Shown: positions 1 through 38,961 of the stretch, one piece after another
Position numbering within the stretch: position 1 is the first letter of the stretch
Layout: every line of letters begins with the position of its first letter
Assembly (NCBI GenBank): GCA_051453625.1
Contig: JBOZIK010000001.1
Coordinates: 39,058,728 to 39,098,929, forward strand
Direction of reading: 5' to 3'
From: Welwitschia mirabilis
Taxonomy: Eukaryota
Length of the DNA: 40,202 bases
Made by a program: the position numbers and the translations under genes
The notes under the pieces: generated by a model
What the model was told of the DNA's origin: nothing
Seen by the model: the letters and a program-made list of their open reading frames with translations, nothing else
The model's database searches: none

Positions 1-513
1 GCGTATTAGATTCCAACCAAGCTTCTTCCATGGAATTTAGATGCTTAATTTTCTAGTGATTCCTATACAACATGGAAATCAAGAAAATGACATGGAAAAA
101 CAAATAGCACATCCTTTATCCTTATAATAAATCATGTTTTTTAAATTTAGAAACTTGGAAAAAATAATGAATATAGGCAATTCATAATTATACACTAATT
201 GCAACCAAAAAAGTTTGATAATTAAACCACTTGCCTTTATGAATTGTAAAATGTAGTTGCAGATAATCAAAAGCTTCTAACACCAGTTTCGCTTTCTCTA
301 ACAAAACATCTCCTGTAAAAGAGTATCAGTAAAGCACACTTATGAATTGGTAGAATTTAAACTAAATTCATATTATAAATACATTAATACATGCAATTAC
401 TTTAATTTTATCATACCTCTAAGCATGTTGAACCAAAACTATTCCTTCTATAAATCTTTGATATATTTTCCCAAGTAACGTACTAGCAACTGATGAACTA
501 AACCCTTAAACAT
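1..513 (-). pseudogene. VPS13: Pseudogenised 5' fragment of a VPS13 (chorein N-terminal domain; VPS13S/SHRUBBY-like) gene; exons 513-417, 312-235, 62-<1
   Basis: Spliced translation: MFKGLVHQLLVRYLGKYIKDL*KE*FWFNMLRG|DVLLEKAKLVLEAFDYLQLHFTIHKG|ITRKLSI*IPWKKLGWNLI. This matches the recalled plant VPS13 N-terminus (MFEGLVRQLLLGYLGRYIKDIQKEQL...VLLENVELILEAFDYLQLPF...GKLSIKIPWKKLGW). Donors are GTATGA and GCAAGT; acceptors are TTACAG and GTATAG. There are three in-frame stops. It continues off the window edge. Confidence 0.88.
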
Positions 514-1219
514 CTTGAAAGGATACCGCTGACTCCCCTTTAGAATGTAAATTAGAGTATTTTAAGATGCTACAAGGGTTTGGTACGCTCATTAGAGTAA
601 TGGCTATTACCTAAATGGTTTTCGTTTTGTTGAATATTTGCTCTATACCTCCTAAATATTGCTCCTCCTATTATGTATTCCTTTTTAAACACCGAGTTTT
701 ATTCATCCTCCATGGAGAAAATTTGTATTTTATCAATAAATATATGTAAATGTTTTTTACAATTGTATTCTATTAATGCAACACTAAAAGAAATGACACC
801 AAGATTAGGGCCAGTGTATATAGAAGGGGGAAATTGAACATGTAAAGTTACAAAGCATCTATAAAGGAATGTAATTTTCTAAAGCTAGATAGCTGAAAGA
901 GCTTCATCCATGGCTATCTCTATGCATACAAATCCTTTTTAGAGTAATGCAACAAAAAATGTGATACCTGCTGAGTGATTTAAGGCATACAAATGATGTC
1001 GAATAGTAGACATCAATTCTTAAATGCAAAAGAGCCATGACACAGGAGAGTCGGAGAGCTGATTCTAAAATGTAGAAGAGTTGCAATGTTGGATAGTTGA
1101 TTGTGTTTTTGATAAAAACACATGATTCTAAAATGAGAGAAAGGGTTCGATGTGCCAACAGCTGATAGTTGAGGGTTTTAAAAGCAGGAACATGGAAATT
1201 TTAATCTTAAAAAGAAGAG

Positions 1220-1443
1220 ATGATTTTAAGGCATTTGTTTACACATACGCCTTAAATAACTCACCACATTTTATTTGAAATAAATGCTTTAAAAACATGA
1301 AATTTTTTAAGAATTACCAGAGTACTTTAAATATATTTCCTTAGCTTTATTTAAGTCGTTTATTAAATTAAATGCCTTAAAAAGCTTTATATTTAAGGAA
1401 TTTACTAAAATAAATCCCTTGAAAGCCAATATTTCTAGTAGTG
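1220..1443. mobile_element. Right terminus of a CACTA (En/Spm) DNA transposon: terminal inverted repeat (TIR) plus subterminal repeats
   Basis: Ends ...ATTTCTAGTAGTG at 1443 (reverse complement CACTACTAGAAAT). It is preceded by clustered direct and inverted TTAAGGCATTT / AAATGCCTTAA-like motifs at about 1226, 1246, 1282, 1371, 1393 and 1412. Confidence 0.75.
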
Positions 1444-1756
1444 AGTATTTTCAATTATAATAGTAAGTTGTAATGGATAATTTTTGTCTTGATAGCTAGC
1501 TATGTCTCAGACTAATTCTGGATCATAATAGTTCCTTAACTCATTATTTCCAAAATCTATTATTTACCCATAATGAGGAGAGTGAAAAAACTATTAAAGG
1601 AGTAAGAACTTGCAAGATTTTCCTAATCTAGATCAAAGCCAACTAACCCCCCAGTGGAGTTCTTGTAGTTACCATATTACACTACCAAAGATCCATTTTA
1701 TGGATATTTACGCCATTGTGCTTGTAAGAAAACATTATGATATGCTTTTTTTAATG

Positions 1757-1776
1757 TATATATATATATATATATA
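1757..1776. repeat. (TA)10 microsatellite
   Basis: Directly visible. Confidence 0.9.
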
Positions 1777-2521
1777 GATTTTAACATGTTATGAAACATG
1801 GATCTTTGGCCCTCTTAGTGTGGTTGATGTTCATTCTCCTATTGAATACTTATCAAGCTAGGTTCTTAGTCTAAAAATCACTCTGGATTGCTTTGAAAAA
1901 CTGATAAATCATCAATTTGANNNNNNNNNNNNNNNNNNNNNNNNNNNNNNNNNNNNNNNNNNNNNNNNNNNNNNNNNNNNNNNNNNNNNNNNNNNNNNNN
2001 NNNNNNNNNNNNNNNNNNNNNNNNNNNNNNNNNNNNNNNNNNNNNNNNNNNNNNNNNNNNNNNNNNNNNNNNNNNNNNNNNNNNNNNNNNNNNNNNNNNN
2101 NNNNNNNNNNNNNNNNNNNNNNNNNNNNNNNNNNNNNNNNNNNNNNNNNNNNNNNNNNNNNNNNNNNNNNNNNNNNNNNNNNNNNNNNNNNNNNNNNNNN
2201 NNNNNNNNNNNNNNNNNNNNNNNNNNNNNNNNNNNNNNNNNNNNNNNNNNNNNNNNNNNNNNNNNNNNNNNNNNNNNNNNNNNNNNNNNNNNNNNNNNNN
2301 NNNNNNNNNNNNNNNNNNNNNNNNNNNNNNNNNNNNNNNNNNNNNNNNNNNNNNNNNNNNNNNNNNNNNNNNNNNNNNNNNNNNNNNNNNNNNNNNNNNN
2401 NNNNNNNNNNNNNNNNNNNNNNNNNNNNNNNNNNNNNNNNNNNNNNNNNNNNNNNNNNNNNNNNNNNNNNNNNNNNNNNNNNNNNNNNNNNNNNNNNNNN
2501 NNNNNNNNNNNNNNNNNNNNN

Positions 2522-2830
2522 CTTTTGTTAATATTCTATTAATTTCTCTATTAGTTTCTTTAGCTTAGTCATTTAATTATAAATGGTAACTAGTAGAATG
2601 TTTGTAATGGGTTCCATGCTTAGATAGATTTTTTTTGAAAGCTTTTCTAGTAAAACAAGTTTCTCTATTAGAAATAAGACTTAGGATTTTTAAACCTATA
2701 GATGATGTTCTTAAGAAAAATGCAACTATTACTTGGAAAGAATAATAAGATATAGTCTTAGCTTAAGCTCACTTAGTGAAGTAATCAAAATAAACCAAAA
2801 TATTTTTTTTAAATAAAAAGGGGGTTAATA
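2522..2830 (-). pseudogene. Integrase core (rve) remnant
   Basis: The translation aligns by eye with YILVAVDYVSKWVEA...IISD.G.HF...TPYHPQTSGQ.E.SNREIK.IL. It is bounded by N gaps. Confidence 0.85.
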
Positions 2831-3229
2831 NNNNNNNNNNNNNNNNNNNNNNNNNNNNNNNNNNNNNNNNNNNNNNNNNNNNNNNNNNNNNNNNNNNNNN
2901 NNNNNNNNNNNNNNNNNNNNNNNNNNNNNNNNNNNNNNNNNNNNNNNNNNNNNNNNNNNNNNNNNNNNNNNNNNNNNNNNNNNNNNNNNNNNNNNNNNNN
3001 NNNNNNNNNNNNNNNNNNNNNNNNNNNNNNNNNNNNNNNNNNNNNNNNNNNNNNNNNNNNNNNNNNNNNNNNNNNNNNNNNNNNNNNNNNNNNNNNNNNN
3101 NNNNNNNNNNNNNNNNNNNNNNNNNNNAATAGCATCTTATCATGCCACATGTAAGCTCTTTCTTCTCTTAACAACCTCTTTCTTTCATAGTAAATCATAA
3201 ATGATAGTAAGTTTTTACTTACAATAAAA

Positions 3230-4400
3230 TTGACTATGTCAGCATACTAAAGATTTCTTCTGATTTAAAAGAGGTATTCATTAGGAAAATCACTTCTTAT
3301 ATTTATTTGTTATTCATCCAAAAATATCCTTTCTTATCAATAATTTTTAAGTAAATTCTTACATTAATAATGTCTATCTCATGATTCTTAAGAATATGAT
3401 TGTGCTATGATGCATATTGATTTTTACTTCATATTCTAAAATATAATGTCTAAATTTTTCTATTATTATTACTATTTCTAACAGTTCATTTTTAGTAACT
3501 CTGTAATTTTATTAATATTACTTAAAATTCTTATTAATTTAGGTAATAGCATATGGTTTGTTCCATCGTCCTTTTATCACAACATATCTCCCATAGCATG
3601 ACTAGATGCATTAGCCATAATGCAAAATGATTTTGTCTAATTAGGTTCTTGTAAAATAGGTGAAAATAAAAGTTTATTTTCTAAATCCTAGAAAGCACTT
3701 TAGCACTCATCAATCTAAGTATACTCTATACTTTTATTCAAGAGAATACTAAGGGGTTCACTAATTTTACTAAAATTTTCTATAAATCTTTTATAATATG
3801 CTACGTGCCCTAGGAAGGATCTTATCTTAATTAATTTAGTTGGAAAAAGTATGTTTTTTATAACCTTGATTTTATATTCTTTAGCCTCAATTCCTTTGTG
3901 AGATATTTTATGTCCTAAGACTGTACCTTTTGTCACTATAAGATTACTTTTAAACCAACTTAATCTTATCCTTTTCTACCCACAACTTTTTAATACCCTT
4001 TTAAATATGATAAGTGATTCATCAAAGTCATTTCCAAAAATTGAGAAATCATCCATAAACACTGTAACAAACCTCCCTATTATATCTTAAAAAATTTTAT
4101 TTACTAATATTTGAAAGGTGACAAAAGCATTACACAATCTAAAAGGCAATACTTTATAAGAATAGGTGCCCTAATGATAGGTAAAAGTTATTTTGGCTTA
4201 ATATTATAAAGCTATTGGAACTTGGTTATAATCATTATATTCATCAAGATAAGTATAGTATTGATTCCTAGAAATTCTCTTTAAATCTTAATCTATAAAT
4301 GAGAGAGGAAAATGATCTTTATAAGTTGTTGAATTCAACTTTCAAAAGTCTATACACACCCTCCATTTATTTCTCTTTTTTGATACTATTATGATAGGAT
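3230..4400 (-). pseudogene. Reverse transcriptase / RNase H remnant of the Athila-type element
   Basis: The FMDD catalytic motif and the KDHFPL, PFxLCNA and IRSFLGH motifs are recognisable but interrupted by stop codons. Confidence 0.9.
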
Positions 4401-23789: not shown

Positions 23790-26310
23790 AATCTATTACT
23801 TTATGAATCCATTTTAGATCTATGTTAGCAAGACCATAATATAAAGTTAATTCAAGATGTGCTTATCCTTCTCTTTGAATAAAGGATTCTATTATCACTA
23901 ATGTGGATCACTTGAATGACCTCTTATCCTTGCAAATAATGATATATAATCTAATAATCATTTGTATGTTTTTTGCTTTACCTAAGTATCATTTTATTTG
24001 TGATGTAATATTTGCAAATCAACAAAACTCCTTTATAGTAGATTTTATAACAACTATGAAAAAGATAACCTATCATGTGTGGTCTTAAGTGCATAAATGA
24101 GTTTAACTTTCAACTTAAGGCATAGATTAATTTCAAAGTAAGACTGCCTACTTAAGATTCAACTTAGAGCAAGAAGTGCTAGGTCTTAAACTTCTCTAGA
24201 TTAAATAATCTAAGACCTATGTTCTTTATCTTCTCCTCTTCTTGCTATTCTTTTTTTCATCTTTTATTCAAACTCTTAATTCTCTATAGATTATTTAAAG
24301 TAATTCTAAAGCCTTAGTTCTAAGTCTTGCTTAAGGCAAAAGGGACAAGTTTCTAGATTGGAAGCTATTTTTCATTTTCATTTCCAATAGGGTTTTGATA
24401 AGAGAGGCCTACATGGATTAAAAGTCTATTACTAGTTCTTAACTCCAAAAATCCCAAGGACATTAAGATAATACCTTCATTCTTCAACAGTGTAACCAAA
24501 ATAAATCAATAAATTTTATTGGAGAAAGAATCATAAAAATTAACCTCAATTATTAATTTATATTTATTTTTATTTATAAACAAGATACTTTTAGGAATAG
24601 AATGTGAGCAAAAGCTTTGTTTAAAGTAGATGTATCAAAAAAAGAGAAAATAATCAAGGATCATCTAAGTGTATAAATCATGTGACAGATGGCTTACAAA
24701 TGAATGATTAATGCTAGAATGTNNNNNNNNNNNNNNNNNNNNNNNNNNNNNNNNNNNNNNNNNNNNNNNNNNNNNNNNNNNNNNNNNNNNNNNNNNNNNN
24801 NNNNNNNNNNNNNNNNNNNNNNATGTCTTCAACTGAACACAAGGATACAAGAAAGAAATTGATTAAAGCCTAAGAGAATGGTTAAGGGTGTTTATCTTAA
24901 AAGGCCTTCCATAATATTTGTTTTCTTATATTTTATTCAATATTTTCTTCCCCTTAATTCCTTCCATTCTTTGTTTTTCCTTTTTTAATAGAATACTTTA
25001 TTGGTTTTTATTATTCACTCCATTAGTTTTCCTTTGTATCCAATTTCAAGTTCTTTCTTTCTTAAGTCCTTCTTGTAAAAAACTAATACCAGTAGAAACT
25101 TTCTTTGAGAAGTCTGAGATAAGAAGAAAGATTTTTTAAAGAAGCATGCATTTTTTCCTACCATTTATGATGATACTTAAAAATGTAAACTGATTACTTA
25201 AAACTTGCTAGCTTAGAGTGAAGAAATGATGGATAAATAAATAGAGAAATTCAGTGGTGAAATTTTCCAATTTTGGCAAGTTAAGATGCAATTAGCATTA
25301 ATCAACAAAGATGTATGAAAAGTAACTAGTGATGAGGTTCCACAACATAAGGATTCTAATAAAATTAATGAATGGGAAACGAAAAAAAAAGTAGACTATG
25401 AGACACTCTTACACATTAGTCTTGGCTTTGAAGACAATTGTCTTCATCACATTGATTTATCAAGGACCAAAAATAAAATTTGGGATGGTTTAAGTAAGAT
25501 TTTTGGATCAAGAGAACATGAAGCAAAACAAGATATTAAACATCAACTTTACTATTCAAAATTAAATAAATTGAGAGAGATGAATTAATACATCAATTAC
25601 TTCAAGTCATTGTTAACACAACTTGTAGCAATCAACACCAAGGTTGATGATGGTGATGATACTAAGGCCATCTTATTACGTAATCTTCTTTCATAATATT
25701 AACATATTATCTTCAACAAGAAGATAACATATTATTTGCCTTGATTCATCTAGTACCAAAAAAAAAAAAAAAAAAAAAAAGGAGGTTCATTATAGAAAAC
25801 AATGCTCAATGCTCATAGGAAAGTCGAGTGCTATTTTAAGCTCAATACTTCATCAAGCTTAGTGCTTTATCCTAGTGCTTCTTTAGCTTAGTGCTTAGCT
25901 TTGTGCTTGAAAATTTAATGTCAAGGCTTCACCACGCTCTAGTCTTGACATGAACTGTATGAAGAGTGTGTTTTTATCATGTATGTCGTTTTCTTTAAAT
26001 AAATGGTACAATAAGAATGCCCACATACCAATTTAGTTTGTTTATATTTAGTTTGACATCATTGTGGACATGATCCACATTTTGTAGATTCACTTGTATC
26101 TTCTATTATTAGATTTGAGTGATATCTTTATTTGATGATTTTTCATCTATTAATAGATTTGAGTGATATATTTATTTGATGATTTGTTAATAAAAAGTTG
26201 AGCTTCCTTGTTTTGTGAAATGATCTTAAGCTCCCCTTTGCTTACTTCTTTCTTATGCTCCCCTTTGCTTGCTTCTTTTTTATGCCTTCTTTTAGCCTTT
26301 TACCTATAAC
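23790..26310 (+). mobile_element. Copia-gag-containing repeat, copy C3 (best-preserved gag remnant ~25240-25720)
   Basis: Translation IEKFSGEIFQFWQVKMQLALINKDV*KV...HISLGFEDNCLHHIDLSRTKNKIWDGLSKIFG...YFKSLLTQLVAINTKVDDGDDTKAILLRNL matches the Ty1/copia gag N-terminus and UBN2 pattern. It is followed directly by non-coding sequence shared with C1. Confidence 0.8.
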
Positions 26311-27090: not shown

Positions 27091-28335
27091 TTAAGAGGGA
27101 TTGACGACCCTGCAGTTGAGACGGATCTCCCCTTGGTCTGCACTTGTGAGAACGCCAATGTCGCCCATTCTGATCATGGCGGAGGCAAAGTTTTTGGCCC
27201 AGAGCATTCCATCAACGGAGTTTTGCAGAACCATATTGGCGGTGGACGCATCCGACATCAAAGTCTGATCAGAAGTGAAGAGGCCTCTGTTTTCCACAAC
27301 TCCGCTGTAGTAAAGATTGTCAAGTAAGGTTGGAGTCAGAGGCTCCATGGACACCTGTGTGTTAGAGTTGGAGGAGGTTCCCTGGGGACATCTGGTCTTC
27401 AGGATTGTTGCGTATGAGAAGTCCAGCGATGGATCTTCCTTTGTTGTCTCACTGAAGTTGTACAGCCGATTTGCGAACGACGAGCAAAGGGATTTTCCTA
27501 TGCTGTGTGCCCCTGAAATTTTGAAAACCATTCATAATTTCGTCGTCTTGTCCAAGCTAGATCGAAACGTAAAACAGAACGCAAAACTAGTTAATGTTTG
27601 AGTTCCAGGGACCTGAGAGAGTGACCATTTCTTCTTGAGTAAGACCCTTCTCTGCAAATCGCTTCGTCAATTGGTTAACGTCGAAAGTTGGCGGAGGAAG
27701 ATTCGTGGCAACGTCCGGCGCCCTCGAGATCCGTCCGTCTCGTCTGCCTCCTTTCACGTCCCAGCTTATCCCACCCGCCTGGTTATAATGCTTTTTAGGC
27801 CAAAAAGTTCGACTATATGATACTGTAAATAAGTAGATAAAAGTGGAGTTTTTCATTCTTTACAAGTTTGGAGCTGTCACGCGCAGCGAAGGCAAGAATA
27901 TCGGCACAAGAAACGACGCCCGGGCAAATGGCTTCAATACTCCTCTTGGCTTCATCGATGATGTCATAACCAGTAAGGCTCGGATTGTTTGCTGGTGCGT
28001 CTTTCTCTGCTGTGTTTTCGGGCGTGGAGTCGATGAGAATGGATCCGTCGCAGCCCTGGAGAGGGAAACCACAAAACTTGTGAATACAAGAGAGAAGAAA
28101 TGAATTTGTCGCTAAAGCTTAGTTCATTAATTACTTGCACAAAGCAATCATGGAAATGCATTCTGATGAGCGATGCAGCGATGGCAGGGTTGCTTCGGAA
28201 GGTCTTGAAAACCACTTGATGAACTATGGACTCTGCTTCTGCACAACTGCTGCTGTAGTATCCCACCTGCAACTCACACTTAACCATCATCTTTGTTATC
28301 AGAACAAACATCAAAGCCAATAAAAGCCTTGCCAT
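27091..28335 (-). CDS. Class III secretory plant haem peroxidase, 4 exons (28335-28135, 28055-27864, 27778-27613, 27512-27091), 326 aa, apparently intact
   Basis: Manual splicing gives 201+192+166+422 = 981 nt in frame, with GT-AG introns of 79, 85 and 100 nt. The 192- and 166-nt internal exons are the classic class III peroxidase sizes. Motifs: hydrophobic signal peptide [12 protein letters not shown]; distal [43 protein letters not shown]; proximal [30 protein letters not shown]. All eight conserved Cys are present. There is no C-terminal vacuolar extension. Confidence 0.97.
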
Positions 28336-28399
28336 TGTAGCCTACTCTACTCTTTTCTCTCTTTGATTCTTTCCCACGACGCAGAGATCTCCATCATTC

Positions 28400-38204: not shown

Positions 38205-38886
38205 TGTCACGACTCAGTTTTTAGGTTGGATTTAAAGGCATTAATTTTTTTAAATTAATTTTATTACATGATAAAACATCAATTTACATGATAAGATTAG
38301 ACATTGCAACAGAATAATTAGGTTATGGCTGAGAGACTTACCTCTTAATTACTGATATGATCTATGTCAAGTGAACTATGTGATGATAGCTTACCTAACT
38401 AATACCATAATCAATCTTAAGGTTAATTAGAAATATTTATTAAGAGCACATAAAGTAAGTTTGTAGGTTGTGGTCGAGGGGTTGGTTTCACCAGTAGCTA
38501 AACAAACACACCTACATAATCCTCATCTAGATGAGTTCAGGCCACATGTAGTTCTATCTTGGACCTCATTATATAAAACAAATTAGTCTCCGCTAAAATA
38601 CATAAGTATAAGATAGAACAAATTAGTCTATATTAGTGGCATGTAATAATCCTAGACATGAAGGAATGCAATGAATAATGAGATAACTCAATATTCAAAT
38701 TAACATCAATAAATATCACATACAAATATATGTACATATGCGTAACGGTGATATATAAAAGTATAGGAGGTAGCTGAGCAAGAATTCTCAAGGTTATAAC
38801 ATCTAGTCCTATTTAGGAATTCTAATGTACAAATTATGATAATACACATGCATATTAATATAAATCAAATATATGGGTACCTAAAT

Positions 38887-38961
<75 letters not shown>

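Follow-up and report, generated by a model that had tools for sequence, protein, structure and literature searches.

Subterminal repeats in transposons of the CACTA (En/Spm) superfamily bind the TnpA protein, and the Tgm family includes members that are rich in gene fragments. Among described systems, FbCACTA1 from Flaveria bidentis is a non-autonomous element of 2820 bp with the 13-bp terminal inverted repeat (TIR) CACTACTAGAAAA (PMC13369971). The TIR of the CACTA end analyzed here, CACTACTAGAAAT, agrees with that of FbCACTA1 at 12 of 13 positions, one base being different, and FbCACTA1 resembles the present locus further in having subterminal repeats, which are 9 to 11 bp long and lie no farther than about 300 bp from the ends; it is without a transposase, none being seen in the visible part here either, and is positioned upstream of a gene (PMC13369971). 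In contrast to the locus described here, both TIRs and a TTT target site duplication (TSD) are shown for FbCACTA1, which carries an enhancer and no gene fragment; moreover, its subterminal motif TTG(T/A)(C/T)GCA(A/T)N is unlike the motif TTTAAGGCAT found here, and the two elements were compared by TIR alone (PMC13369971). The TIRs of En1/Spm from maize and Tgm1 from soybean each agree with CACTACTAGAAAT at 11 of 13 positions (PMC3193017 Table 2). En1 is an autonomous element, whereas nothing coding was seen in the part of the element visible here.

A second group of relatives is formed by the Pack-CACTA and Pack-TYPE elements such as Pack-CACTA1a of Arabidopsis, with which the locus shares a CACTA terminus, subterminal repeats and an intron-containing host gene fragment (PMC6379663; PMC8903248). 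The lack of a transposase in the visible part, the low copy number and a repetition of the termini that greatly exceeds that of the interior are likewise features held in common with Pack-TYPE elements (PMC8903248). How such elements acquire host DNA has been described by a capture model in which two neighboring elements become a single mobile unit once their inner TIRs have been deleted or mutated (PMC6379663; PMC8903248 Fig 3A legend), a route presented there as a model that was deduced from the structures of the elements (PMC6379663; PMC8903248). A possible relic of an inner TIR at position 782 of the DNA analyzed here fits this two-element fusion model (PMC6379663; PMC8903248). By contrast to the Pack-CACTA elements, only one end is visible at this locus, and the copies of its family are old, the listed pieces being diverged by 9-17%. 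Literature searches combining VPS13 with CACTA, judged for relevance by title, or with transduplication returned no relevant report; gene capture by CACTA elements is itself well described, and the 5' end of VPS13 as cargo of such an element may be unreported.

The window, i.e., the whole stretch of 40,202 nucleotides that was analyzed, is a gapped, A+T-rich plant scaffold with 20 N runs totaling 4003 bases. Its minus strand from 513 to 1 corresponds to exons 1-3 of plant VPS13, residues 1-78, with the introns retained, and is followed on the right by DNA that was copied together with the exons:
1-62, minus strand: start of VPS13 pseudo-exon 3, matching residues 59-78 by tblastn, with the stop TAA at 39-37; it continues beyond the left edge of the window.
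63-230, minus strand: intron 2, 168 nt, GT..AG, the splicing of which shifts the frame of exon 3 by one base.
231-312, minus strand: VPS13 pseudo-exon 2, residues about 33-59, matching residues 34-60 by tblastn.
313-416, minus strand: intron 1, 104 nt, GT..AG, 78% A+T, phase kept.
417-513, minus strand: VPS13 pseudo-exon 1, with the ATG at 513-511 and the donor GT at 416-415, matching residues 1-24 by tblastn and VPS13_N in Pfam.
514-781, no strand assigned: DNA upstream of the pseudo-ATG, co-copied with the exons as seen from diverged contigs spanning 513; parental promoter or transposon filler.

The identity of this piece was established by comparison with plant proteins, as the original prediction had proposed. 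When VPS13 N-termini from plants (P0001, P0002, P0003, P0005, and P0007) and a VPS13 of 2985 amino acids (P0008) were compared with the window by tblastn, three collinear minus-strand matches were obtained, namely residues 1-24 at 513-442 (67-71% identity), residues 34-60 at 310-230 (56-62%) and residues 59-78 at 63-4 (65-72%), which together span 56-72% identity and E values of 1e-6 to 1e-3 for a search space of the 40-kb window. Elsewhere in the window no comparable VPS13 match was detected by tblastn, the next best having E values of 0.038 and above and at most 35% identity, with the exception of one 15-residue match (E 3.8) exceeding that identity. The Pfam family VPS13_N matched exon 1 only (E 1.9e-4) and, since no more than 41 of the 1317 profile positions are represented, its score of 19.7 bits lies far under the cut-off of 80 bits. 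A search with the read-through frame against 1.84 billion representative proteins yielded seven matches (E 1.3e-4 to 6e-4), all of them plant VPS13 N-termini and, where named, chorein-N or vacuolar proteins (Vitis, Datura, Musa); the 2985-aa VPS13 of Withania clusters together with one of these seven. A further search for homologous proteins with the same frame gave no match in a length range of up to 2000 amino acids, full VPS13 proteins being longer than this range, nor were any homologs matched between 95 and 303 amino acids. In the PDB sequence search, only the fungal Vps13 N-terminus 6cbc_A was returned (E 1.4), which is not significant. The annotated short proteins P0002, P0006, and P0007 (Asimina, Musa, and Datura) consist of a VPS13 N-terminus fused to unrelated sequence; such short fused proteins may be mis-annotations or additional relocated VPS13 5' ends.

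The homology to the VPS13 (chorein-N) family is not accompanied by an open reading frame with an N-terminal chorein motif, owing to three in-frame stops (TAG at 450-448, TAG at 441-439, and TAA at 39-37) and a frame error of 1 nt at the joint of exons 2 and 3: splicing of intron 2 at its GT..AG boundaries (230-63) shifts exon 3 by one base, while the homologous frame would require exon 3 to start at 61. The original prediction of three spliceable exons that encode a VPS13 chorein-N start with three stops was thus upheld as regards the exons, their GT..AG introns and the stops, but needs correction at intron 2, the splice of which does not leave exon 3 in frame. From the retained introns, the stops and the frame error it follows that the fragment is a dead genomic copy, as had been suspected from its introns; on the evidence of its sequence it is a pseudogene fragment that is unable to make protein.

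The pseudo-ATG at 513 lies 930 bp from the end of a TIR of CACTA type at 1443, in agreement with the distance of about 930 bp to a TIR with subterminal repeats given in the original prediction. The features of this end are the following:
782-794, plus strand: TIR-like sequence CACTAAAAGAAAT, a candidate mutated inner TIR, 11 of 13 positions identical to the right TIR and starting with CACTA.
979-1430, no strand assigned: CACTA subterminal region with six TTTAAGGCAT-type motifs in both orientations, 42-nt direct and 36-nt inverted repeats, and depth climbing toward the end.
1431-1443, minus strand: right TIR CACTACTAGAAAT and end of the element, recognized by contig break-offs, depth and TIR likeness.
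1444-1446, no strand assigned: AGT next to the right TIR, the candidate TSD by its position, its partner lying outside the window.

A TIR start of about 13 bp of the CACTA type was found at this right end, CACTACTAGAAAT being the reverse complement of 1431-1443. With at most one mismatch, the motif TTTAAGGCAT occurs six times in 979-1401, on both strands, not once in 1-978 and seven times over the remainder of the window. The region additionally contains a direct repeat pair of 42 nt at 1348-1431 and an inverted pair of 36 nt at 1224-1259/1347-1382. When 1-1920 was compared with the whole window, neither the element nor VPS13 turned up a second time. All Rfam families stayed below their gathering scores in the window, the terminal 20-mer had 0 matches in a metagenome scan, and Tandem Repeats Finder reported only (TA)10 at 1757-1776.

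In order to view the locus beyond the single copy in the window, 1-1920 was compared at a likeness of at least 80% with contigs from the same species (two samples, X1 and X5) and from a second species (X9), as well as with raw reads from the first species (X13). Directly after 1443, 47 contigs in X1 and 21 in X5 depart from the window into unrelated DNA (flank agreement 0.42-0.44), although these break-offs are dominated by a very abundant terminal family and not specifically by the 7-13 VPS13-linked copies. The depth in X1 amounted to 3817 in 1345-1408 and 1511 in 1409-1472, as compared to about 3 for own-locus contigs, a roughly 500- to 1300-fold excess for the terminal ~95 bp. The abundance of these last ~95 bp and the breaking of contigs after 1443 therefore identify 1443 as the true end of an element that lies to its left; it is a genuine CACTA transposon terminus.

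To the right of this end, a second and unrelated high-copy repeat was observed at 1568-1690, with a depth of up to 5884 in X1 and 8280 in X9 and sharp boundaries at 1568, 1609, 1638, and 1690. Other copies of this repeat show a conserved consensus beyond 1690 and before 1638 (agreement 0.64-0.86), and hence the copy in the window is rearranged or truncated. Farther to the right, a "peroxidase 5-like" gene for a secretory plant peroxidase of class III occupies 27091-28341 on the minus strand; its four exon-sized ORFs, with PF00141, lie in an island richer in G+C, the closest database match reaches 61% identity, and the relatives are scattered over monocots, eudicots and conifers. A copia-type gag ORF at 25319-25585 on the plus strand, whose match to PF14223 (E 8.6e-6) narrowly misses the cut-off, is probably a retrotransposon remnant, and the long microsatellite of (GT)n/(CA)n at 38800-38961, next to an N gap, appears as CVCV.../THTH... 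in the ORF translations.

The same comparison revealed that the VPS13 region is itself repeated. At eight listed positions in 56-480, a letter differing from the window was found in 7-13 contigs of X1, 3-6 of X5 and 3-11 of X9, numbers that are contig counts and not copies per genome, since contig runs and X13 coverage conflict. The listed diverged pieces are 83-91% alike overall (83-85% in X1) and cover introns as well as exons, as in X1 record 1 (4-392) and X9 record 16 (12-379). Hence, the VPS13 fragment is no lone duplicate: it is part of a repeat with diverged copies that is also present in the second species, and its contig counts show related copies and no singleton, in keeping with the clustering by which packFinder recognizes Pack-TYPE elements. 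In the raw reads, only one of the 3852 aligned reads in X13 was at least 99% alike to the window, and the depth over 1-1344 was about 2-32 (both orientations summed), i.e., 0.3-5 times that of the flank 1793-1920 (6-8); raw-read depth alone does not set the VPS13 region apart.

The other copies also inform on the history of the piece. In 13 contigs of X1, the exchange 480 G>C turns Arg12 of the window into Gly12 as in working VPS13, and in 12 contigs of X1 252 T>G turns His53 into Pro53, again as in working VPS13. The parental residue is thus retained by most other copies at the two positions that were listed within exons 1 and 2. This points to independent decay of the copies from an ancestor closer to the gene. 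Of the 40 best-supported disagreement positions in 1-1100, 20 are T>C or A>G (732 further rows exist beside these 40); the presence of T or A in the window where other copies have C or G would be expected if the window copy had lost methylated cytosines by deamination.

Continuity between the VPS13 piece and the CACTA arm was found in individual contigs. Among the pieces listed, the pseudo-ATG at 513 is spanned by X1 records 2, 4, and 5 and by X5 records 11 and 12. In X1 record 5 (477-1135) and X5 record 11 (311-903), exon 1 and its upstream DNA are joined to the arm across 782, these two being the bridging contigs among 23 listed pieces, with 5216 more pieces beyond those listed. The interior of the arm is in turn joined to the terminal repeats, with deletions, at the joints 1144>1392 and 1255>1348 in X5 and 1144>1390 in X9. 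From cargo to terminus, the depth in X1 rises from about 30-70 to 27-196 and then to 1511-3817, with a dip in 513-768 (29-39 in X1, 10-16 in X5); Pack-TYPE elements have been described with a depth profile that rises in this direction (PMC8903248). That a solo CACTA end fragment and an ordinary duplicated VPS13 pseudogene are chance neighbors with no common history we consider very unlikely: 28 and 54 contigs of X1 do share just 1346/1350-1443 with the window, the terminal piece thus often occurring without this interior, but the subterminal motifs and the inverted pair at 1224-1259/1347-1382 bind 979-1344 to the terminus, diverged contigs link 311-1135, and 7-13 intron-containing copies are unlike an ordinary duplicate of a gene of ~3000 residues.

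We therefore prefer, at a probability slightly better than even, to read 1-1443 as the right-hand part of a non-autonomous Pack-type transposon of the CACTA (En/Spm-type) superfamily. The diverged multi-copy VPS13 piece, the contigs across 782, the mismatch between CAA and AGT described below and the parental codons fit an amplification of VPS13 as CACTA cargo, and this reading of the VPS13 copies, with a non-autonomous CACTA element as their carrier, is probable. The right arm of this element would extend from 782 or 979 to 1443, with the TIR CACTACTAGAAAT at its end and the subterminal repeats within, and its cargo would be a genomic, intron-containing piece of host VPS13, made up of upstream DNA and at least exons 1-3 and pointing away from the arm. 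The composite would have been copied to about ten places with transposase supplied in trans, after which all copies would have decayed independently. We infer a position of the cargo between two TIRs, the non-autonomy of the element and its capture route from the visible part. The original prediction of a mobilized Pack-CACTA cargo is accordingly supported in part: the piece is multi-copy and, in other copies, continuous with the CACTA right arm, and the step from there to a Pack-CACTA element is the one made here with the stated reserve.

TIR matches with at most two mismatches, such as CACTAAAAGAAAT at 782, number 5 in the window versus 1.88 expected; for the 1.4 kb on the correct strand, where CACTAAAAGAAAT accounts for one of just two CACTA sites, about 0.04 would be expected by chance according to our own estimate. 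The reading that survives best besides the preferred one takes 782-1443 as a short non-autonomous CACTA element of 662 bp that lies merely beside the VPS13 fragment, the latter having been copied, once the short element had landed, by some different carrier such as a larger transposon not of the CACTA kind or a segmental duplication. In its favor are the 11 of 13 positions shared with the right TIR from the initial CACTA onward, and the step in depth between 779 (23.5, 10.4, and 23.5 in X1, X5, and X9, respectively) and 832 (59.1, 83.2, and 78), seen in all three contig sets; this step could mark the start of a commoner short element near 782. However, no TSD was found for 782-1443, CAA at 779-781 standing against AGT at 1444-1446, 782-978 is without any TTTAAGGCAT-type subterminal motif, and no ends of another carrier are visible in 1-1443. 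Since the TSD does not match, the motif is absent from the first 200 bp and diverged copies (the two listed contigs) cross 782, this position is not a working left end, and it was rejected as functional left end of the VPS13-bearing family; the original prediction had named a left end at 782 as the arrangement that would leave VPS13 outside the element.

The right flank bears on the same question. In X1, the flanks are likewise multi-copy, with a depth of 67 at 1473-1536 and of 22-32 at 1793-1920 versus about 3 for the own locus, and repetition alone is therefore not special at this locus. The similar depth of 1473-1536 and of the VPS13 region speaks for a short element beside an independently copied VPS13 piece. 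On the other side, the X9 joint 1509>1605 connects 1473-1509 with the unrelated repeat at 1568-1690 and not with the VPS13 family, which suggests that 1473-1509 belongs to this second repeat. In view of the repetitive flank, a larger repeat unit that holds the VPS13 piece together with a nested CACTA element may also be considered. Altogether, we regard a short element with a separately copied neighbor as unlikely, though the foremost of the alternatives to CACTA cargo.

Returning to the preferred reading of a Pack-type CACTA element with VPS13 cargo, the two-element fusion model would account for a TIR-like sequence with 11 of 13 positions at 782 that is without a TSD. A small CACTA element would once have been located upstream of a VPS13 gene, with the motif at 782 as its inactivated inner end, and capture would have followed the published route, the two neighboring elements moving as one through their outer ends. 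We put forward only tentatively, and as a possibility clearly short of even, that CACTAAAAGAAAT represents, in mutated form, the inner end of one member of a pair of neighboring CACTA elements; mobilized together via the outer ends, this pair would have taken with it the first exons of VPS13 along with the promoter-proximal portion, in a family that survived in two species.

It might also be asked whether VPS13 is the cargo of a large autonomous CACTA element with its transposase genes farther to the left, which would be gene capture as well, but not of the Pack type. Only the final 1443 bp of the element are in view, the candidate cargo-bearing element being cut by the window edge, and the window begins inside pseudo-exon 3 with the copy continuing to the left of base 1, both of which are compatible with such an arrangement. 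Nevertheless, the scan of 43 ORFs in the window detected no Pfam domain, transposase included, in the three ORFs of at least 65 amino acids in 1-1443, and published gene-carrying CACTA elements are mostly non-autonomous (PMC6379663; PMC8903248). An autonomous carrier hence appears distinctly improbable, still more so than a short element beside the VPS13 fragment.

Pack-type gene capture is an established source of pseudogene families, of chimeric transcripts and possibly of small RNAs in plants, and the VPS13 locus, if it is a Pack-CACTA element, is one more case of this known event. The sole point that is special to it is the possible relic of an inner TIR, which, together with the left end, could reveal the capture route; if the relic is real, the locus would be a natural fossil of capture by "mutation of the inner TIR". 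For the annotation of this genome, the message is that VPS13-like N-terminal matches are probably for the most part transposon cargo and not genes.
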